Positions 1,925 through 56,221 of a stretch of DNA of 64,000 nucleotides are shown here, piece after piece. Below the pieces are notes generated by a model. That model worked only from the letters and a program-made list of their open reading frames with translations. It ran no database searches and was not told the origin of the DNA. Source of the stretch: Escherichia coli. Lineage in GTDB: Bacteria > Pseudomonadota > Gammaproteobacteria > Enterobacterales > Enterobacteriaceae. The stretch's first letter is position 1; each line of letters starts with the position of its first letter. The stretch is from assembly GCF_013315695.1 (NCBI RefSeq), contig NZ_CP054353.1; one strand, given 5' to 3'. The position numbers were made by a program, and so were the translations under genes.

Positions 1925-2341
1925 TTAATCAATAAACAAGGCGGGAGAAATGCCGAATCGCGTTGCCAGTTTTTTAGCGTGTTCCAGCGTTAATTTCCTC
2001 TTCCCGCTCAAAACGCGTGACACCATCGATTTACTGCCAATTTCCGGCAGATCGGAAAGGGTTAAACCATATTGATCCATAAGGGTACGAATCACAGCTT
2101 TACCGCCAGGCATGGCTTGCGCCATGGCATTAAATTCAGCAAATTCGGGCGCTGATTCTTCCCACGCGGTTATTTTGGCACACGCCAGATCCAGCAAGGG
2201 GTTTTCAGGATCGTTGAGCAGCAGATGATCTACCAGTTCCAGCGCCTGGGTGTATTGTTCCTCGTTCTGAATACCCGCCAGAAAAGGTGCCACAGCAGTT
2301 AGCTTTTCTCCTGCTTGCAAGATGTCGGCAATCGCAATCAT
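1925..2341 (-). CDS. higA: HigA antitoxin (HTH-XRE family)
   Basis: 138-aa ORF; translation recognised as HigA (YgjM). Confidence 0.85.
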   Translation of the reverse strand: MIAIADILQAGEKLTAVAPFLAGIQNEEQYTQALELVDHLLLNDPENPLLDLACAKITAWEESAPEFAEFNAMAQAMPGGKAVIRTLMDQYGLTLSDLPEIGSKSMVSRVLSGKRKLTLEHAKKLATRFGISPALFID

Positions 2342-2415
2342 TTTTTCCCCTTAGTACGATGAACGGCGGTAAAGAAATCGTATTCTTTATGCGTCATAAC
2401 TTCACGTATGTAGCA
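2338..2415 (-). pseudogene. higB: higB toxin 3' remnant (about 25 C-terminal codons only)
   Basis: Minus-strand frame reads ...CYIREVMTHKEYDFFTAVHRTKGKK-stop, with the stop overlapping the higA ATG (TCAT on plus strand); upstream sequence is unrelated and REP-containing, and there is no ORF of 60 aa or more. Confidence 0.5.
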
Positions 2416-9624: not shown

Positions 9625-11112
9625 TTATAGCGTTACGCCGCTTTTGAAGATCGCCAGTTCGCGGAAGTCGTTACGCTCGTTACAGGTTTGCTTACCGTTG
9701 GCAAACTCAACGATGGTGTCGATAAATTCTTCCAGCAACTGCGGCATCGCTTTACCGTGGATCAGCTGACCCGCGTCAAAGTCGATCCAGTGTTTTTTCT
9801 TCGCCGCCAGTTCACTGTTGGTGGCGATTTTCACCGTCGGCACAAATCCACCATACGGCGTGCCACGACCAGTACTGAACAGCACCATATGGCAGCCCGC
9901 ACCCGCCAGGGCGCTGGTCGCTACGGCATCGTTACCCGGCGCACTTAACAAGTTCAGCCCCGGCGTTTTCAGACGCTCGCCGTAACGCAGCACGTCAACC
10001 ACGACACTGGAACCCGCTTTCTGGGTACAGCCGAGGGATTTGTCTTCCAACGTAGTGATACCGCCCGCTTTGTTCCCCGGTGATGGGTTTTCGTAGATCG
10101 GCTGGTCATGGGCAATAAAGTACTGCTTGAAGTCATTGACCATGGTGACCAGTTTTTCAAACGTTGCTTCGTCACGGCAATGGTCCATCAGCAACTGCTC
10201 TGCACCAAACATCTCCGGCACTTCGGTCAGTACGGTAGTACCACCGTTAGCAATCACGTAGTCAGAGAAACGACCGAGCATTGGGTTGGCGGTAATACCG
10301 GAAAGACCGTCAGAACCGCCGCACTCCAGACCAAACTTCAGTTCGCTGAGTTTGCCCGGCTCGCGCTTGTCGTTGCGCATCACGTTATACAGCTGATGCA
10401 AATGCGCGATCCCGGCCTCGATTTCATCATCCTGCTGTTGGCAGATCATGAAATGAACGCGTTCAGGATCGATATCGCCCAACGTTTCACGGAATGCGGC
10501 AACCTGGTTGTTTTCACAGCCCAGACCAATCACCAGCACTGCACCCGCGTTCGGGTGGCGCACCATGTTTTGCAGCATGGTGCGAGTATTGATGTGATCG
10601 TCGCCCAGTTGTGAGCAGCCGTAGGTGTGGCTGAAGAGGAACACGCCGTCGGTACCTTCAGCGTTGTTGGTCTCTTTCAGGAAACGATTTTGGATCTGCC
10701 GCGCGATGCCGTTGACACAGCCCACGGTTGGCAGGATCCACAGCTCATTACGCACCCCGACATCGCCGTTCGCGCGACGATAGATCTGCACTTCACGATC
10801 TGCCGCTTGCGCAGGCAGATCCTGAAAATCAGGTTGATAGCGATACTGATCCAGATCGCTCAGATTCGTGCGCGTATTGTGGGCGTGAACGTGTTCCCCC
10901 GCCGCAATATCCGCCAATGCATAACCAATCGGCAGGCCATATTTAATGACGTTGGCCCCTTTTGCGATATCCGTTAACGCAAATTTATGTCCACGAGCAA
11001 CATCCTGGCGCAGCGTAACAGTCTGGTTATCGACACTGACTTCTGTGCCTTCAGCCAAATCCGCTAAAGCAACCGCGACGTTATCCAGCGCATGGATCTT
11101 GATGTATTGCAT
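9625..11112 (-). CDS. uxaA: Altronate dehydratase
   Basis: 495-aa ORF; recognised as UxaA (same dehydratase family as GarD). Confidence 0.9.
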   Translation of the reverse strand: MQYIKIHALDNVAVALADLAEGTEVSVDNQTVTLRQDVARGHKFALTDIAKGANVIKYGLPIGYALADIAAGEHVHAHNTRTNLSDLDQYRYQPDFQDLPAQAADREVQIYRRANGDVGVRNELWILPTVGCVNGIARQIQNRFLKETNNAEGTDGVFLFSHTYGCSQLGDDHINTRTMLQNMVRHPNAGAVLVIGLGCENNQVAAFRETLGDIDPERVHFMICQQQDDEIEAGIAHLHQLYNVMRNDKREPGKLSELKFGLECGGSDGLSGITANPMLGRFSDYVIANGGTTVLTEVPEMFGAEQLLMDHCRDEATFEKLVTMVNDFKQYFIAHDQPIYENPSPGNKAGGITTLEDKSLGCTQKAGSSVVVDVLRYGERLKTPGLNLLSAPGNDAVATSALAGAGCHMVLFSTGRGTPYGGFVPTVKIATNSELAAKKKHWIDFDAGQLIHGKAMPQLLEEFIDTIVEFANGKQTCNERNDFRELAIFKSGVTL

Positions 11113-11126
11113 ATCAACCCCAGACC

Positions 11127-13021
<1,895 letters not shown>

Positions 13022-42859: not shown

Positions 42860-43236
<377 letters not shown>

Positions 43237-47551: not shown

Positions 47552-47993
47552 TTTATTTACCTCGGGTACTTATGCTGATTTTTATTATTATGGGGAAGGT
47601 GTTATTTATGAGTTTTATTTATGCCGTTACGGCAATGAACTCGGGAATTAGTATAATCAGCGCGAGAATAATAATCATTGTGCAAATGCTAATTTAATTA
47701 ATACTATTTAAATATTATTTTGAGCATATGCACATAAGGTTGCGCGCTAAAGCACAGATTTGCGCTTTACCTTGCCGGGCGGCACTGCAATCCCTGAAAT
47801 GATTGACATTGATCACATTTCTGCGTTTAAACTCCTGACATTCTTATTTCACCCAATGAAGTAATTTATTTTTAAATGAGACCAGGTCCTCATTTTAATA
47901 ACCCCTGGCTGGAGAATATTGCACAATGGCCAACATCGAAATCAGACAAGAAACGCCAACTGCGTTTTATATAAAAGTTCACGACACAGATAA

Positions 47994-48002
47994 TGTGGCA
48001 AT
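47994..48002. repeat. IS1 target-site duplication, left copy (TGTGGCAAT)
   Basis: Same 9-mer directly flanks both IS1 ends. Confidence 0.8.
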
Positions 48003-48017
48003 GGTAATGACTCCAAC

Positions 48018-48521
48018 TTATTGATAGTGTTTTATGTTCAGATAATGCCCGATGACTTTGTCATGCAGCTCCACCGATTTTGAGAACGACAGCGACTTCC
48101 GTCCCAGCCGTGCCAGGTGCTGCCTCAGATTCAGGTTATGCCGCTCAATTCGCTGCGTATATCGCTTGCTGATTACGTGCAGCTTTCCCTTCAGGCGGGA
48201 TTCATACAGCGGCCAGCCATCCGTCATCCATATCACCACGTCAAAGGGTGACAGCAGGCTCATAAGACGCCCCAGCGTCGCCATAGTGCGTTCACCGAAT
48301 ACGTGCGCAACAACCGTCTTCCGGAGCCTGTCATACGCGTAAAACAGCCAGCGCTGGCGCGATTTAGCCCCGACATAGCCCCACTGTTCGTCCATTTCCG
48401 CGCAGACGATGACGTCACTGCCCGGCTGTATGCGCGAGGTTACCGACTGCGGCCTGAGTTTTTTAAGTGACGTAAAATCGTGTTGAGGCCAACGCCCATA
48501 ATGCGGGCTGTTGCCCGGCAT
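48018..48521 (-). CDS. insB: IS1 transposase InsB frame (expressed as InsAB' by -1 frameshift)
   Basis: 167-aa ORF identical to the one in copy 2. Confidence 0.9.
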
Positions 48522-48715
48522 CCAACGCCATTCATGGCCATATCAATGATTTTCTGGTGCGTACCGGGTTGAGAAGCGGTGTAAGTGAACTGCAGTTGCC
48601 ATGTTTTACGGCAGTGAGAGCAGAGATAGCGCTGATGTCCGGCGGTGCTTTTGCCGTTACGCACCACCCCGTCAGTAGCTGAACAGGAGGGACAGCTGAT
48701 AGAAACAGAAGCCAC
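48440..48715 (-). CDS. insA: IS1 InsA (transposition inhibitor / N-terminal part of transposase)
   Basis: 91-aa [24 protein letters not shown]... with zinc-finger Cys pairs. Confidence 0.9.
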
Positions 48716-48770
48716 TGGAGCACCTCAAAAACACAATCATACACTAAATCAGTAAGTTGGCAGCATCACC

Positions 48771-48779
48771 TGTGGCAAT
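48771..48779. repeat. IS1 target-site duplication, right copy (TGTGGCAAT)
   Basis: Matches 47994..48002. Confidence 0.8.
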
Positions 48780-50297
48780 TATTGTTAATGATAATGGCCT
48801 GAAAGCAGGAACGCGTTTTCCGGATGAGCTGGAATTAATTGAACATATTCCCCAGGGGCATAAAGTCGCATTGCTGGACATTCCAGCTAATGGTGAAATT
48901 ATTCGTTATGGCGAAGTGATTGGTTACGCCGTGCGCGCAATCCCACGCGGAAGCTGGATCGACGAATCAATGGTTGTACTACCGGAAGCGCCGCCGTTAC
49001 ACACGCTGCCACTGGCAACCAAAGTCCCGGAACCCTTACCGCCGCTGGAAGGATACACCTTTGAGGGCTATCGCAATGCCGATGGCAGCGTGGGCACTAA
49101 AAACCTGCTCGGCATCACCACCAGCGTCCACTGTGTAGCAGGCGTGGTGGACTATGTAGTAAAAATCATTGAACGCGATCTGCTACCGAAATACCCGAAC
49201 GTCGATGGCGTGGTGGGGCTGAATCATTTGTACGGCTGTGGCGTGGCGATTAACGCACCGGCGGCAGTTGTGCCTATTCGTACCATCCACAATATTTCGC
49301 TGAACCCTAACTTTGGCGGCGAAGTAATGGTGATTGGTCTGGGTTGTGAAAAGTTGCAGCCTGAGCGCCTGCTGACTGGAACGGATGATGTGCAAGCTAT
49401 TCCAGTAGAAAGCGCCAGCATTGTCAGTTTGCAGGATGAAAAGCATGTCGGCTTTCAGTCCATGGTCGAGGATATTTTGCAGGTCGCCGAACGCCATTTG
49501 CACAAACTGAATCGACGGCAGCGAGAAACCTGTCCGGCTTCAGAACTGGTTGTTGGCATGCAGTGCGGTGGCAGCGATGCGTTTTCTGGCGTAACGGCAA
49601 ACCCGGCGGTTGGGTATGCGTCTGATCTACTGGTGCGCTGCGGCGCAACGGTGATGTTTTCAGAAGTCACGGAAGTGCGTGACGCGATCCATCTGCTGAC
49701 ACCACGCGCAGTGAACGAAGAGGTCGGCAAACGGCTGCTGGAGGAGATGGAGTGGTACGATAACTATCTCAATATGGGAAAAACCGACCGCAGCGCCAAC
49801 CCTTCGCCGGGCAACAAGAAAGGCGGTCTGGCAAATGTGGTGGAGAAAGCGCTCGGCTCCATTGCTAAATCGGGTAAAAGTGCAATTGTTGAAGTGCTGT
49901 CGCCCGGCCAACGCCCGACTAAACGCGGATTAATTTACGCCGCGACGCCAGCCAGCGATTTTGTCTGTGGCACGCAACAGGTGGCTTCGGGTATCACCGT
50001 GCAAGTGTTTACGACCGGTCGCGGTACGCCGTACGGCCTGATGGCGGTACCCGTCATTAAAATGGCAACCCGCACCGAGCTGGCGAACCGCTGGTTTGAT
50101 TTAATGGATATTAATGCGGGCACCATCGCTACCGGCGAAGAAACTATTGAAGAGGTGGGCTGGAAGTTGTTCCACTTTATTCTCGACGTCGCCAGCGGGA
50201 AGAAGAAAACCTTCTCAGATCAATGGGGACTGCATAACCAGCTGGCGGTGTTTAACCCAGCACCGGTGACCTGATTTCTTTTGGAACGTCCCTCGCA

Positions 50298-50330
50298 AAA
50301 CATGGCCTTAGTGCCATGTTTTTATTGTTT
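50298..50330 (+). terminator. Rho-independent terminator after garD
   Basis: AAAACATGGC-CTTAGT-GCCATGTTTT perfect hairpin followed by TATTGTTT. Confidence 0.7.
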
Positions 50331-50422
50331 AAAGTCCCCACGTCCATTAATAATGCATTTGCATTACCTTAGTTCAAGCTTATAATTTGAGCAGAAAACA
50401 GGCTGTAAAAGGACAGTGAATC

Positions 50423-50758
50423 ATGCCCGCTAATGCTCGCTCTCACGCTGTACTGACCACTGAATCAAAGGTCACGATACGCGGACAAACAACTATCCCC
50501 GCGCCAGTGCGTGAGGCCTTAAAACTGAAGCCAGGCCTGGACAGCATTCATTACGAAATTCTGCCTGGTGGGCAAGTATTTATGTGCCGACTGGGAGATG
50601 AACAGGAGGATCATACTATGAATGCATTTTTGCGTTTTCTGGATGCAGATATCCAGAACAACCCGCAAATAACTCGTCCATTCAACATTCAACAAGGAAA
50701 GAAACTTGTCGCAGGCATGGACGTCAACATTGATGATGAGATTGGCGACGACGAATAA
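50423..50758 (+). CDS. prlF: PrlF (SohA) antitoxin, AbrB/SpoVT-fold
   Basis: 111-aa ORF with acidic C-terminus; stop overlaps the yhaV start (ATGA). Confidence 0.9.
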   Translation: MPANARSHAVLTTESKVTIRGQTTIPAPVREALKLKPGLDSIHYEILPGGQVFMCRLGDEQEDHTMNAFLRFLDADIQNNPQITRPFNIQQGKKLVAGMDVNIDDEIGDDE

Positions 50759-51222
50759 TGGATTTTCCACAAAGGGTTAATGGTTGGGCGCTATATGCTC
50801 ATCCCTGTTTTCAGGAAACCTACGACGCTTTAGTTGCCGAAGTTGAGACATTAAAGGGAAAAGATCCTGAAAATTATCAGAGAAAAGCCGCCACAAAGTT
50901 ATTGGCGGTAGTCCATAAAGTGATTGAGGAGCATATCACGGTCAATCCATCATCACCGGCATTCCGTCATGGCAAGTCGTTAGGCTCTGGGAAAAATAAA
51001 GACTGGTCACGGGTAAAATTTGGTGCTGGTCGTTATCGTCTCTTCTTTCGTTATAGTGAAAAAGAGAAAGTCATCATTCTGGGATGGATGAACGATGAAA
51101 ACACTCTGCGCACCTACGGTAAAAAAACAGATGCCTATACCGTATTCAGCAAAATGTTAAAAAGAGGACATCCTCCTGCCGACTGGGAAACCCTCACCCG
51201 AGAGACAGAAGAAACCCATTGA
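50758..51222 (+). CDS. yhaV: YhaV toxin (ribosome-dependent RNase)
   Basis: 154-aa ORF translationally coupled to prlF. Confidence 0.9.
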   Translation: MDFPQRVNGWALYAHPCFQETYDALVAEVETLKGKDPENYQRKAATKLLAVVHKVIEEHITVNPSSPAFRHGKSLGSGKNKDWSRVKFGAGRYRLFFRYSEKEKVIILGWMNDENTLRTYGKKTDAYTVFSKMLKRGHPPADWETLTRETEETH

Positions 51223-51276
51223 TGGTGTTCACAATGCCCGCCGAACGCATTCGTGTTGACCAGCGGGCACCCTTTC

Positions 51277-52086
51277 TCACTCCCCGACCAGAATCACTTC
51301 AACCCCAGCCTTTCGCAGTCCTTCCAGACTATCCGCAGGAATGCCTTCATCAACAATGATCATGTCGATACGTTGAGTATCAATGATCTTATGTAAACTG
51401 GAACGGTTGAACTTACTGGAATCGGTGACCACGATGATCCGTTCCGCAACTTCGCACATCCGACGGTTTAAACGGGCTTCATCTTCATTATGCGTGCTGA
51501 CGCCGCGCTCCAGATCGATCGCATCTACGCCAAGAAACAGCATATCGAAGTGGTAATTTTGCAGCGATTGTTCAGCCTGATCGCCGTAAAAAGATTGCGA
51601 CTGACGGCGCAAATGCCCGCCGGTCATCAGCAGCTCAACGCCTTCCGCTTCCAGCAACGCATTAGCCACGTTCATACCGTTGGTCATCGCAATTACGTCA
51701 GTGTGCTTGCGCATCAGACGAGCAATCTCAAAAGTGGTGGTCCCGGAATCGAGGATTACCCGATGACCTGGCTGAATCAACTCAACGGCAGCTTTCGCAA
51801 CGCTGCGTTTCATTGCGGTGTTCAGCGCGCTTTTATCTTCCACTGATGGCTCGACTGACGGCGTCGTGCTATCGCAGATCAACGCGCCGCCATAGGCACG
51901 CACAGCGATCCCCTGCTTTTCCAGAAACGCCAGATCGTTGCGGATCGTCACAGTAGATACACCATACAACGCCGATAGATCATTAACTTGCACACTTCCT
52001 TGCTGGCGCAGGCGTTGAATAATCTGCTCTCGTCGCTCACTGGTGCCTGTCACTCGCTTCTCGCCTGAAGCGTCGGTATTACTCAT
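51277..52086 (-). CDS. agaR: DeoR-family repressor of the aga regulon
   Basis: 269-aa ORF with N-terminal HTH, divergent from kbaZ. Confidence 0.9.
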
Positions 52087-52334
52087 AGTAAGTCCTTTCG
52101 TAAAACTTTCGTTTCATTTCGTTTTGCCTATTAACGCCTTTCTATTAAGCAAATGCAAGCCCACCTTACCCATTGGCGCAAGCTACTCTCGTTTCAGTGG
52201 CTTTCATTATGTTTCTTTTGTGAATCAGATCAGAAAACCATTATCTTTCGTTTTATTTTTATCTCACCATGGCGCAGTATCAACTGAAACAAAACGAAAG
52301 ATTAATATCGCAGTAATCTGAACTGGAGAGGAAA

Positions 52335-53615
52335 GTGAAACATCTGACAGAAATGGTGAGACAGCACAAAGAGGGCAAAACAAATGGGATTTATGCCGTT
52401 TGTTCCGCACATCCGCTGGTGCTGGAAGCTGCAATCCGCTACGCCAGTGCAAACCAAACGCCGTTACTGATTGAAGCAACCTCCAATCAGGTGGACCAGT
52501 TCGGCGGTTATACCGGAATGACGCCCGCCGATTTTCGCGGCTTTGTTTGTCAGCTCGCCGACTCGTTGAATTTCCCACAGGATGCGTTGATTCTGGGTGG
52601 CGACCATCTGGGGCCAAACCGCTGGCAAAACCTGCCTGCCGCTCAGGCAATGGCCAATGCCGATGATTTGATTAAAAGCTACGTGGCGGCAGGATTCAAA
52701 AAAATTCACCTTGATTGCAGCATGTCCTGTCAGGACGATCCGATTCCCTTAACTGATGACATCGTGGCCGAACGCGCCGCTCGTCTGGCGAAAGTGGCGG
52801 AAGAAACCTGCCGTGAACATTTTGGCGCGGCCGATCTGGAGTATGTCATTGGTACCGAAGTACCGGTACCTGGCGGCGCGCATGAAACCTTAAGCGAGCT
52901 GGCGGTCACCACGCCGGATGCCGCCCGCGCCACGCTGGAAGCCCATCGTCACGCCTTTGAAAAGCAAGGTCTGAGTGCCATCTGGCCACGCATCATTGCT
53001 CTGGTGGTACAACCCGGCGTCGAATTCGATCACACCAACGTTATTGATTATCAGCCCGTCAAAGCGACCGCCTTAAGCCAGATGGTCGAAAACTACGAAA
53101 CGCTGATTTTCGAAGCGCACTCTACCGATTACCAAACGCCGCAATCGCTGCGCCAGCTGGTGATTGACCACTTTGCCATTCTGAAAGTTGGCCCGGCGCT
53201 GACCTTCGCCCTGCGTGAAGCTCTGTTCTCTCTGGCGGCGATTGAAGAAGAACTGGTACCAGCAAAAGCCTGTTCTGGTCTGCGTCAGGTGCTGGAAAAC
53301 GTGATGCTCGACCGCCCGGAATACTGGCAAAGCCACTACCACGGTGACGGCAACGCGCGTCGTCTGGCGCGTGGTTATAGCTACTCGGATCGCGTGCGCT
53401 ATTACTGGCCGGACAGCCAGATTGATGACGCTTTCGCTCATCTGGTTCGTAATCTGGCGGATTCACCAATTCCGCTACCGCTGATCAGCCAGTATTTGCC
53501 GCTGCAGTACGTGAAAGTTCGCTCCGGCGAGCTGCAGCCAACGCCACGGGAACTCATTATCAACCATATTCAGGACATCCTGGCGCAGTACCACACAGCC
53601 TGTGAAGGCCAATAA
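52335..53615 (+). CDS. kbaZ: Tagatose-1,6-bisphosphate aldolase accessory subunit
   Basis: 426-aa ORF, GTG start, recognised as KbaZ/AgaZ. Confidence 0.85.
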
Positions 53616-53637
53616 GCAAAACAAAGAGGAACACGCT

Positions 53638-54111
53638 ATGCCAAATATTGTTTTAAGTCGGATTGATGAACGCTTGATTCACGGTCAGGTCGGCGTTCAG
53701 TGGGTCGGATTTGCGGGGGCAAATCTGGTGCTGGTAGCCAACGACGAGGTTGCCGAAGATCCGGTACAACAAAACCTGATGGAAATGGTACTGGCAGAAG
53801 GGATCGCCGTACGTTTCTGGACGCTGCAAAAAGTCATCGACAACATTCATCGCGCCGCCGATCGACAGAAAATCCTGCTGGTTTGTAAAACACCTGCCGA
53901 TTTCCTGACGCTGGTGAAAGGTGGCGTTCCGGTGAATCGCATTAACGTTGGCAATATGCACTACGCCAATGGCAAGCAACAAATCGCCAAAACGGTTTCT
54001 GTGGATGCGGGTGATATCGCAGCATTTAACGACCTGAAAGCCGCTGGGGTGGAATGCTTCGTTCAGGGCGTCCCGACAGAGCCTGCTGTGGACCTCTTTA
54101 AATTACTTTGA
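53638..54111 (+). CDS. agaV: PTS N-acetylgalactosamine-specific IIB component
   Basis: ORF 53602..54111; start at MPNIVLSRIDERLIHGQVG gives 157 aa. Confidence 0.85.
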   Translation: MPNIVLSRIDERLIHGQVGVQWVGFAGANLVLVANDEVAEDPVQQNLMEMVLAEGIAVRFWTLQKVIDNIHRAADRQKILLVCKTPADFLTLVKGGVPVNRINVGNMHYANGKQQIAKTVSVDAGDIAAFNDLKAAGVECFVQGVPTEPAVDLFKLL

Positions 54112-54121
54112 GGGATTCATC

Positions 54122-54901
54122 ATGGAAATCAGTCTGTTGCAGGCATTCGCGTTGGGCATTATCGCCTTTATCGCTGGCCTGGATATGTTTAACGGCCTAA
54201 CCCATATGCACCGCCCGGTGGTCCTCGGCCCGTTGGTCGGACTGGTACTTGGCGATCTGCATACCGGTATTTTAACCGGCGGTACGCTGGAACTGGTGTG
54301 GATGGGGCTGGCCCCGCTGGCGGGCGCACAGCCGCCTAACGTGATTATCGGTACTATCGTCGGCACGGCGTTTGCCATTACTACTGGCGTGAAACCCGAT
54401 GTCGCGGTCGGTGTCGCCGTACCTTTCGCTGTCGCAGTACAGATGGGGATTACCTTCCTGTTCTCGGTGATGTCCGGCGTGATGTCCCGCTGCGACCGGA
54501 TGGCGGAGAACGCCGATACACGCGGCATTGAACGCGTGAACTATCTGGCACTGCTGGCACTCGGCACGTTCTATTTTCTCTGCGCTTTCCTGCCTATCTA
54601 CTTCGGCGCAGAACATGCAAAAACCATCATTGATGTCCTGCCGCAACGATTAATCGACGGCCTCGGCGTCGCGGGCGGCATCATGCCAGCAATCGGTTTT
54701 GCCGTGTTGCTGAAAATCATGATGAAAAACGTCTACATCCCCTACTTCATCCTGGGCTTTGTTGCCGCAGCCTGGCTCAAGTTACCGGTGTTGGCTATTG
54801 CTGCCGCTGCGCTGGCGATGGCGCTGATCGACTTGCTGCGTAAATCTCCTGAACCGACTCAACCTGCGGCACAGAAAGAGGAATTTGAAGATGGCATCTA
54901 A
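54122..54901 (+). CDS. agaW: PTS GalNAc-specific IIC component (full length)
   Basis: 259-aa polytopic ORF, uninterrupted. Confidence 0.85.
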   Translation: MEISLLQAFALGIIAFIAGLDMFNGLTHMHRPVVLGPLVGLVLGDLHTGILTGGTLELVWMGLAPLAGAQPPNVIIGTIVGTAFAITTGVKPDVAVGVAVPFAVAVQMGITFLFSVMSGVMSRCDRMAENADTRGIERVNYLALLALGTFYFLCAFLPIYFGAEHAKTIIDVLPQRLIDGLGVAGGIMPAIGFAVLLKIMMKNVYIPYFILGFVAAAWLKLPVLAIAAAALAMALIDLLRKSPEPTQPAAQKEEFEDGI

Positions 54902-55769
54902 TCAAACTACCCTGCCGAACGTCAGTGAAAACGAAGAAACACTGCTGACTGGCGTCAATGAAAACGTGTATGAAGATCAGAGTATTGGCGCGGAGCTGAC
55001 GAAAAAAGATATCAACCGCGTCGCCTGGCGTTCCATGCTGTTACAAGCGTCTTTTAACTACGAACGTATGCAGGCTTCCGGCTGGTTGTACGGTCTGCTG
55101 CCTGCTCTGAAAAAGATCCACACTAATAAACGCGACCTGGCGCGCGCCATGAAGGGGCATATGGGTTTCTTCAATACCCATCCGTTTCTGGTGACGTTTG
55201 TTATCGGCATTATCCTTGCGATGGAGCGTTCTAAGCAGGACGTTAACAGTATTCAGAGCACCAAAATTGCCGTCGGTGCGCCGCTCGGCGGGATTGGCGA
55301 TGCGATGTTCTGGCTAACGCTACTGCCGATTTGTGGCGGGATAGGCGCAAGCCTCGCGCTACAAAGCTCTATTCTTGGCGCAGTCGTCTTTATTGTGCTG
55401 TTCAACGTGGCGCATCTCGGTTTGCGTTTTGGTCTTGCACATTATGCTTACCGCATGGGCGTGGCGGCGATTCCACTCATTAAAGCAAATACCAAAAAAG
55501 TCGGCCATGCGGCATCTATCGTTGGGATGACGGTAATCGGCGCGCTGGTGGCAACCTATGTTCGTTTAAGCACCACGCTGGAAATCACAGCGGGCGACGC
55601 AGTGGTTAAGTTACAGGCTGATGTTATCGACAAACTGATGCCTGCCTTCTTACCACTGGTCTACACCCTGACCATGTTCTGGCTGGTACGCCGCGGCTGG
55701 AGTCCGCTGCGCCTGATTGCGATTACCGTGGTTCTCGGCATCGTCGGTAAATTCTGCCATTTCCTTTAA
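54891..55769 (+). CDS. agaE: PTS GalNAc-specific IID component
   Basis: ORF 54885..55769; ATG at 54891 (MASNQTTLPN) gives 292 aa. Confidence 0.85.
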   Translation: MASNQTTLPNVSENEETLLTGVNENVYEDQSIGAELTKKDINRVAWRSMLLQASFNYERMQASGWLYGLLPALKKIHTNKRDLARAMKGHMGFFNTHPFLVTFVIGIILAMERSKQDVNSIQSTKIAVGAPLGGIGDAMFWLTLLPICGGIGASLALQSSILGAVVFIVLFNVAHLGLRFGLAHYAYRMGVAAIPLIKANTKKVGHAASIVGMTVIGALVATYVRLSTTLEITAGDAVVKLQADVIDKLMPAFLPLVYTLTMFWLVRRGWSPLRLIAITVVLGIVGKFCHFL

Positions 55770-55786
55770 ATACAATGAGGTATTAG

Positions 55787-56221
55787 ATGTTAAGTATTAT
55801 TTTGACAGGGCATGGCGGATTTGCCAGCGGCATGGAAAAAGCAATGAAGCAAATTCTCGGTGAGCAATCGCAGTTTATCGCCATCGATTTTCCGGAAACC
55901 TCAAGCACCGCGCTGCTTACATCGCAGCTTGAAGAGGCCATCGTCCAACTGGATTGTGAAGACGGCATTGTTTTTCTGACGGATTTGCTGGGCGGCACGC
56001 CGTTTCGCGTAGCTTCAACGCTGGCGATGCAAAAACCGGGCTGTGAAGTGATCACCGGCACCAATTTGCAACTGCTACTGGAGATGGTGCTGGAGCGCGA
56101 AGGGTTAAGCGGTGAAGAGTTCCGTGTGCAGGCGCTGGAGTGTGGACACCGTGGGCTGACCAGTCTGGTGGACGAGTTAGGCCGCTGCCATGAAGAATGT
56201 CCGGTCGAGGAAGGAATATGA
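55787..56221 (+). CDS. agaF: PTS GalNAc-specific IIA component
   Basis: 144-aa ORF recognised as AgaF. Confidence 0.85.
   Translation: MLSIILTGHGGFASGMEKAMKQILGEQSQFIAIDFPETSSTALLTSQLEEAIVQLDCEDGIVFLTDLLGGTPFRVASTLAMQKPGCEVITGTNLQLLLEMVLEREGLSGEEFRVQALECGHRGLTSLVDELGRCHEECPVEEGI

Follow-up and report, generated by a model that had tools for sequence, protein, structure and literature searches.

A canonical prlF-yhaV toxin-antitoxin operon at its native garD-agaR site in Escherichia coli, probably enclosed by IS1 only incidentally

Introduction

When a chromosomal toxin-antitoxin (TA) operon lies between two copies of the same insertion sequence, does it hold the enclosed DNA in place, or is it simply enclosed? 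The question is raised by prlF-yhaV in a 64,000-nucleotide stretch of Escherichia coli DNA (contig NZ_CP054353.1; hereafter the window), in which the pair lies among gar and aga genes between two directly repeated IS1 copies. The original prediction for this locus, made from its sequence, regarded the module as a candidate stabiliser of the bracketed segment. Much of the background is already published, including prlF-yhaV itself, its location, its mechanism, and the protection of neighbouring DNA by TA modules, and the useful outcome of the present analysis is a negative one. The best explanation of the locus, which we consider very probable, is that prlF-yhaV is a canonical chromosomal type II TA operon at its native site between garD and agaR, and that the IS1 bracket around it is incidental and very young.

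The closest known system is PrlF-YhaV (SohA-YhaV) of E. coli K-12 (Schmidt et al. 2007, J Mol Biol 372:894, as cited in PMC8546651 and PMC12107188). The features of the locus are collected in Table 1, and the readings that compete with the one given above are weighed below, beside the evidence that bears on each of them.

Table 1. Features of the prlF-yhaV locus and of its IS1 bracket, in window coordinates.
Feature	Position	Strand	Basis
garD (ATG at 47927), split by IS1 copy 1 following nt 76	47927..50274	+	ORFs, K-12 comparison
IS1 copy 1, in garD, 768 bp with terminal inverted repeats	48003..48770	-	perfect 9-bp target duplication
IS1-bracketed segment, 11,095 bp	48771..59865		ORF list; gene names by collinearity with MSB1_4I and K-12
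prlF-yhaV cassette of about 1 kb, presence/absence unit between convergent garD and agaR	50275..51276		empty-site comparison, GC, divergence
garD intrinsic terminator hairpin, 10-bp stem, then T run	50297..50322	+	hairpin scan; conserved in Pseudocitrobacter
Palindrome TAATGCA-TT-TGCATTA, overlapping the -35 hexamer, candidate PrlF or PrlF-YhaV operator	50351..50366		perfect 7-nt arms
Sigma-70 promoter-like site for prlF-yhaV, TTTGCA-17-TATAAT	50358..50386	+	promoter scan, 10/12 consensus matches; function inferred
prlF (sohA), 111-aa antitoxin that is also an autorepressor	50423..50758	+	ORF, profile matches, K-12 identity
yhaV, 154-aa toxin, a ribosome-dependent mRNA endonuclease of RelE type	50758..51222	+	ORF, PF11663, K-12 identity
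agaR, convergent with yhaV over a 54-nt gap	51277..52086	-	ORF list, MSB1_4I annotation
IS1 copy 2, 768 bp, between the kbaY 3' region and truncated agaB	59866..60633	-	sequence comparison

Identity and integrity of the operon

In the ORF list of the window, prlF and yhaV are both open and full length. YhaV matches PF11663 (E 8e-54, 181.9 bits against a cutoff of 35), with residues 12-150 covering profile positions 1-137 of 138, and is identical to YhaV of E. coli K-12 MG1655 at 154 of 154 residues. PrlF matches PF15937 (E 4e-40, 136.3 bits, cutoff 32) and the NCBIfam PrlF antitoxin equivalog NF007429 (164.8 bits, cutoff 125) in a profile search, and its N-terminal AbrB-type match to TIGR01439 falls just under the cutoff (26.8 versus 28.3). 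It shares 109 of 111 residues with MG1655 PrlF, the changes being Q39L and K83I, and the same allele is present in E. coli MSB1_4I. Judged by profile and by identity, toxin and antitoxin alike are assigned to the PrlF-YhaV family. The 1002-bp module, bounded by the stop codons of garD and agaR, differs from K-12 by 7 SNPs and 0 indels (99.3% identity). Sequence identity to the alleles of MG1655 that PMC8546651 employed leads us to infer that YhaV inhibits growth and that PrlF neutralises it. A sequence search of solved structures gave no meaningful match for PrlF or YhaV, a match to the ThreeFoil structure being dismissed as spurious, and an Rfam and tRNA scan found nothing in or near prlF-yhaV, with rnpB at 42860-43236 as the sole match.

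The two genes meet at GAA-TAATG-GAT, where the TAA stop of prlF (50756-50758) and the ATG of yhaV (50758-50760) share one A; the overlap is of 1 nt within TAATG, and not the 4-nt ATGA stop/start overlap that had been described. The garD stop ends at 50274, leaving a gap of 148 nt before prlF, which matches the earlier figure of about 150 bp. With the antitoxin gene first, the genes coupled and a promoter-like site of its own, the pair is a bicistronic operon.

The two PrlF substitutions relative to K-12, and the presence in the same window of another TA locus, higBA, which has lost most of its toxin gene, could be taken to mean that prlF-yhaV is a decaying, non-functional remnant. This reading is rejected as extremely improbable, given that both ORFs run to full length, that YhaV has the same sequence as the active toxin of K-12, that promoter, palindrome and overlap are intact, and that MSB1_4I carries the same PrlF allele. 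The pair had been called intact in the original prediction, and on this point ORFs, family profiles and K-12 identity agree.

Control region and proposed mechanism

The promoter-like site and the palindrome upstream of prlF are identical to those of K-12. The palindrome is also invariant in E. albertii, in the divergent Escherichia strain E69, in Pseudocitrobacter and in Cedecea; the Cedecea module lies in a different context, and the palindrome there is still unchanged although the DNA around it is not alignable. It is likely, from this conservation, that the palindrome at 50351-50366 is the operator of the PrlF-YhaV autorepressor. According to PMC12107188, citing Schmidt 2007, prlF-yhaV forms one transcript that is repressed by the PrlF-YhaV complex. 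When prlF carries a 7-bp duplication, the operon is derepressed and Lon is more active (PMC12107188).

Going by K-12 identity and published work, a single promoter would drive a bicistronic prlF-yhaV mRNA. PrlF, in which an AbrB-type DNA-binding domain is predicted at the N-terminus and the C-terminal tail is acidic, would bind and neutralise YhaV. The PrlF-YhaV complex would repress the promoter of the operon, the palindrome over the -35 hexamer being the most likely site. Free YhaV would cleave mRNA on the ribosome. YhaV belongs to the RelE/HigB clade and shows the codon-phase and 5'-end bias of ribosome-dependent cleavage, cutting before G within A-site codons (PMC8546651, PMC11980606). It differs from RelE and HigB in being placed in a separate Pfam family (PF11663) and in having an AbrB-type antitoxin, rather than one of the RHH or HTH type.

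The native site and its occupancy

The gene order garP-garD-prlF-yhaV-agaR-kbaZ is common to K-12, MSB1_4I, EC12, E. albertii and further Escherichia lineages, and Pseudocitrobacter also has garP-garD-prlF-yhaV, with a YhaV that is 83% identical. The locus is the same as in K-12 down to its spacing (garD-148 nt-prlF-yhaV-54 nt-agaR, tabulated also in PMC5120126); what differs here is the PrlF allele (Q39L/K83I), the splitting of garD by IS1, and a second IS1 lying 8.6 kb downstream. The module thus did not come with a dispensable or mobile segment, but occupies its native site as in K-12, E. albertii and Pseudocitrobacter.

Among 5426 complete E. coli genomes, in raw counts that include each clonal relative, the 1002-bp module was found at a coverage of at least 80% in 5135 (94.6%), and the adjoining agaR-kbaZ in more, namely 5314; the module is absent from 5.4% of genomes, as against 2.1% for agaR-kbaZ. 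Genomes with a match to agaR-kbaZ numbered 5321, and a contiguous prlF-to-kbaZ stretch was matched in 5352 of the 5426. Both module and agaR-kbaZ are missing from 74 genomes, while only 31 retain some module sequence without agaR-kbaZ. A query made of a real empty-site sequence identified 189 genomes with a clean empty site, including EPEC E2348/69, in which 66 bp with a hairpin stand in place of the stretch that begins at the garD stop and reaches 3 bases into the agaR 3' end; in empty-site genomes of the E2348/69 type AgaR is annotated as 5 aa longer. These empty sites agree with a report that YhaV is nearly absent from ST95 and ST12 (PMC10790755). A synthetic join of the garD 3' and agaR 3' ends matched 636 genomes at a coverage of at least 80%, a number irreconcilable with the other counts and probably an artefact of the way in which matched places are linked up.

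Origin of the IS1 bracket

The two IS1 copies lie in the same orientation, as direct repeats, and are identical at 766 of 768 positions. IS1 copy 1 is flanked by the target duplication TGTGGCAAT (47994-48002 and 48771-48779), and the intactness of this duplication marks a simple, undisturbed transposition into garD; a 505-aa ORF starting at 48757 is the garD 3' remnant. The statement that the TA pair follows garD holds, together with its spacing, but garD itself is not intact. IS1 copy 2 has no target duplication, its flanks being AAAAATTAT and ACAAACGGT, and it substitutes for 294 bp of K-12 sequence comprising the agaB promoter and the first 264 nt of the gene; the missing 294 bp are the mark of an IS1-associated adjacent deletion. 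Between the two copies lie, in native order, the garD 3' part, prlF, yhaV, agaR, kbaZ, agaVWEF, agaA/nagA, agaS and kbaY. IS1-IS1 recombination could delete 11,863 bp, prlF-yhaV included, and in this respect the original prediction, which placed the module inside a segment deletable by such recombination, was right.

Over about 63 kb, E. coli MSB1_4I and the window are set apart by 6 SNPs and by IS1 copy 1: the strain has IS1 copy 2, lacks IS1 copy 1, and its garD is intact. Because IS1 copy 1 is absent from this near-identical strain, the bracket is best seen as a recent accident. The junction of IS1 copy 1 with garD had 0 matches among the 5426 complete E. coli genomes. The 2 mismatches between the copies suggest a third IS1, at another place in the genome, as the source of copy 1. 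Probably the lineage had IS1 copy 2 first, and IS1 copy 1 entered garD only in this strain. The prlF-yhaV module would not have been recruited to the segment, and at native expression would be at most a weak barrier to its loss.

Two near-identical direct IS1 copies around a block of genes also recall Tn9, and the two elements with the DNA between them might be viewed as a composite transposon that has moved, or could move, as a unit with prlF-yhaV as addiction cargo. This is highly improbable and is rejected, since the outer flanks TGTGGCAAT and ACAAACGGT share no target duplication and the cargo is native to the site, its genes being collinear with K-12 and MSB1_4I. The 9-bp duplication of its own at IS1 copy 1 identifies a recent solo insertion, and copy 2 has none. 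In the plasmid collection searched, only 4 records carry a YhaV of at least 95% identity, and the one inspected is 4.9 Mb long and chromosome-sized.

Natural deletions and the stabiliser hypothesis

The reading put forward originally may be stated as follows: prlF-yhaV would stabilise the 11-kb bracketed segment, in that deletants would stop making labile PrlF, YhaV would arrest or kill them, and they would be under-represented. The geometry allows for this, with the module lying inside direct IS1 repeats 11,863 bp apart, and the toxin is identical to an experimentally toxic K-12 allele. YhaV-family toxins at 45-54% identity were also found on 328 plasmids in a plasmid collection, and these plasmid-borne relatives may act as addiction modules.

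The concept itself has been shown for other modules. MvpAT (VapBC family) of the Shigella flexneri virulence plasmid pINV is likewise a TA pair in DNA deletable by recombination between insertion sequences, and it acts locally to prevent the loss of adjacent pINV DNA by such deletion, as was shown by repositioning the module (PMC5629016). It differs in being plasmid-borne and in its toxin, a PIN-domain nuclease that cuts initiator tRNA and is not of the RelE type; and while its local effect is experimentally shown, a strong effect of prlF-yhaV is contradicted by natural deletions. In the chromosomal integron of Vibrio vulnificus, relBE1 and parDE1 reportedly made large deletions rarer when the DNA was not under selection (Szekeres et al. 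2007, Mol Microbiol 63:1588, as cited in PMC8230891). These modules are chromosomal like prlF-yhaV, but belong to other families and are cassettes of a mobile integron array, and their effect has been demonstrated experimentally.

The natural deletions were found in part with a synthetic garD'-IS1-agaB' deletion junction, which as a query identified two genomes where a single IS1 joins garP to agaB: DXMF6-3R, which has lost coordinates 10318-19391 of the K-12 locus (L007), and 29A20CPO013, which has lost 10284-19528. A garD-IS1-yraI junction accompanies the loss of 12115-23229 in EC23HZZ201, and prlF-yhaV is gone from all three. In LR-71-1 only the first 119 nt of prlF are left. Viable lineages thus include at least four independent deletions in which the module was lost or destroyed along with adjoining genes, and three of the deletions are confirmed as IS1-associated. 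The natural isolate Ec-U3 has an IS1 inserted inside yhaV.

These lineages, the 74 double absences and the 189 empty sites are not what strong counter-selection against joint loss of module and segment would leave behind. The excess of double absences over the 31 genomes that keep some module sequence without agaR-kbaZ, the more frequent absence of the module than of its neighbour, and the much greater age of the module than of the IS1 bracket also count against a stabilising role. So does work on engineered strains, in which prlF and yhaV deletions are routine: a strain lacking 10 TA systems including prlF-yhaV is viable and widely used (PMC5120126). In a preprint covering 10 systems, YhaV included, stress or chloramphenicol induced transcription of these operons but their toxins were not detectably liberated at native levels, the antitoxin in the complex being protected (bioRxiv 10.1101/2020.03.02.972737). 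This translation-block result is the closest published proxy for gene loss, and it makes post-segregational killing less likely for genes at native dosage.

A further set of deletions might nevertheless be read in favour of stabilisation. In PSJ-07, S171-1 and 2018-05-5CC, three independent IS1 deletions stop just outside the module and spare prlF-yhaV, ending within about 200 bp of the yhaV 3' end; on the left, one ends 59 nt inside agaR, another about 125 nt inside it, and another near codon 146 of yhaV, and their right-hand junctions differ (yraI or yraJ). The left endpoints of the other deletions are clustered too, with two separated by 34 bp in the spacer between garP and garD, and two within or close to the 5' edge of the cassette. 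The left ends of the three sparing deletions are more clustered than uniform endpoints would give, in a sample that is small, takes no account of relatedness, and is partly ascertained by design through a query running from yhaV to IS1 with 200-nt IS1 ends. A first yhaV-IS1 query in both orientations was swamped by inverted IS1 pairs and was uninformative.

IS1 prefers AT-rich targets. Because the prlF-yhaV cassette is GC-poor, this preference is at least as good an explanation of the clustered endpoints as counter-selection of module loss. A deletion arriving from the agaR side would moreover strike the toxin gene first, and would be harmless.

Taken together, the natural losses rule out a strong barrier, and a modest quantitative stabilising effect is possible. 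The view of the module as a candidate stabiliser of its segment is left unsupported, since natural IS1 deletions remove it and its native site predates the bracket, and we consider stabilisation of the segment by prlF-yhaV improbable.

History of the cassette

The cassette differs from its surroundings in composition, with a GC content of 45.1%, as against 52-55% in garD, agaR and kbaZ. Compared with E. albertii, the window diverges by 12.0% in garD, 10.7% in agaR and 8.3% in kbaZ, and by 2.5% in the cassette; dS is about 0.6 for garD and agaR, 0.03 for prlF and 0.10 for yhaV. The tract of low divergence runs from about 50170 to about 51370 and covers the cassette together with some 100 bp on either side. 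Between the E. albertii cassette and the E. coli EC12 allele the divergence is 1.1%, while EC12 and K-12 differ by 2.4%. These values, in a signal of interspecies transfer that rests on one E. albertii genome, indicate that E. coli and E. albertii have exchanged the cassette recently, presumably via recombination in the flanks. Such an exchange fits the proposal that chromosomal type II systems of E. coli move horizontally (Ramisetty and Santhosh 2016, as cited in PMC5120126).

On an evolutionary time scale the GC-poor 1-kb cassette would behave as a semi-autonomous unit, mostly kept, at times cleanly absent and at times hit by IS1, and swapped between Escherichia species by flank recombination. 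One may go further and regard it as a selfish, addiction-prone unit that biases which IS1 deletions survive and that spreads across Escherichia by homologous recombination. We regard this stronger version as unlikely; if it were true, the 11.9-kb deletion would be recovered measurably less often because the cassette lies within the new IS1 bracket.

Why the module persists

A different account, which rivals others as to why the module persists and not as to what it is, holds that prlF-yhaV is kept for a benefit to the host, such as abortive infection of phage or PrlF-Lon proteostasis, and not through addiction. It draws on the purifying selection acting on yhaV (dN/dS 0.09 versus E. albertii), the prevalence of 94.6%, and the apparent spread between species, as well as on prlF alleles that alter phenotypes dependent on Lon and may confer a strong benefit (PMC12107188). 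In one study, deletion of yhaV cost about 8% of growth in LB; in the same publication, yhaV loss-of-function alleles, one of them an IS1 insertion, swept to fixation repeatedly in chemostats (PMC5960147), which speaks on the other side. The 10-system deletion strain showed no stress phenotype (10.1101/2020.03.02.972737), entire B2 sequence types lack the module (PMC10790755), as do the genomes with empty sites, and neither PrlF nor YhaV matched a PADLOC defence model. Host benefit is therefore a tentative explanation of persistence, for which we see a modest chance, and it sits beside the canonical operon at a native site as the reading of the locus itself.

Implications

The prlF-yhaV cassette, GC-poor, cleanly present or absent, and shared across species, is an example of a TA pair evolving semi-independently of its flanks. 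Across the 5426 genomes, the module does not prevent IS1-mediated loss of gar-aga DNA and is more dispensable than its neighbours; it is therefore not to be read as the reason why the segment persists.

IS1 insertions in garD and agaB

Among the complete E. coli genomes, 16 others have IS1 joined, within a few hundred bp, to the same 5' stretch of garD that adjoins IS1 in the window. In these genomes IS1 lies at other positions and garD is left as split fragments; the exact IS1/garD junction of the window was found in none of the 16. garD looks like a recurrent target of IS1. The second IS1 copy of the window has deleted the agaB promoter and the first 264 nt of the gene, so that the galactosamine PTS is probably dead; agaVWEF are intact in the window. 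Many other E. coli genomes also carry IS1 within or beside agaB, at slightly shifted positions.

IS1 insertions in prlF-yhaV

IS1 is also found inside the toxin-antitoxin module itself in natural isolates. In Ec-U3 (comparison locus L018, 1723-2963), yhaV is split by IS1 and prlF is intact, and strains YZLc1-3, EC17CM6 and MS 196-1 have IS1 in the module, as judged from listed feature names only. These isolates parallel the yhaV IS insertions obtained by chemostat selection (PMC5960147). In the draft genome of Escherichia sp. MOD1-EC7003, yhaV is divided between two contig ends (L014 and L015), which would fit the presence of a repeated element, for example an IS, inside the toxin gene.

Other features of the window

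The window contains a degraded second toxin-antitoxin locus, higBA, flanked by rlmG and fadH, in which higA is an orphan antitoxin gene; higA and higB are annotated in the identical state in the near-identical strain MSB1_4I. It also contains a CS1/CFA-type chaperone-usher fimbrial cluster of four genes (chaperone, major subunit, usher and CfaE/CblD-type tip adhesin), with coordinates transferred from the MSB1_4I annotation.

Positions of features in the window
Feature	Position	Strand	Remarks
higA	1925-2341	-	138 aa, intact
higBA locus	1925-2415	-	higB reduced to about 78 nt of its 3' end, upstream of higA
Fimbrial cluster	about 14418-19518	-	between exuR and exuT
garD 5' stretch	47927-48100		
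prlF-yhaV cassette	50275-51276		
IS1 copy 2	59866-60633		

Empty site and history of the cassette

A clean empty site is present in 189 complete E. coli genomes. In the empty-site allele of E2348/69 (L006, 3301-3366), 66 bp with a hairpin stand in place of the cassette (compared with window 50275-51279), and AgaR is annotated as 274 aa, 5 aa longer than the 269 aa of the alternative allele. A count of 636 genomes matching a synthetic empty-site query at coverage of at least 80% was set aside, being at odds both with the number of true empty sites (189) and with the number of genomes carrying the module (5135).

The cassette has a GC content of 45.1%, compared with 52-55% in the flanks. Its history was examined by comparing the window with E. 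albertii (L010), E. coli EC12 (L005) and the divergent Escherichia strain E69 (L012). Divergence between the window and E. albertii is only 2.5% in the cassette but 11-12% in the flanks, and one E. coli allele differs from the E. albertii cassette allele by only 1.1%. These values imply that a 1.2-kb tract has recently been exchanged between the species.
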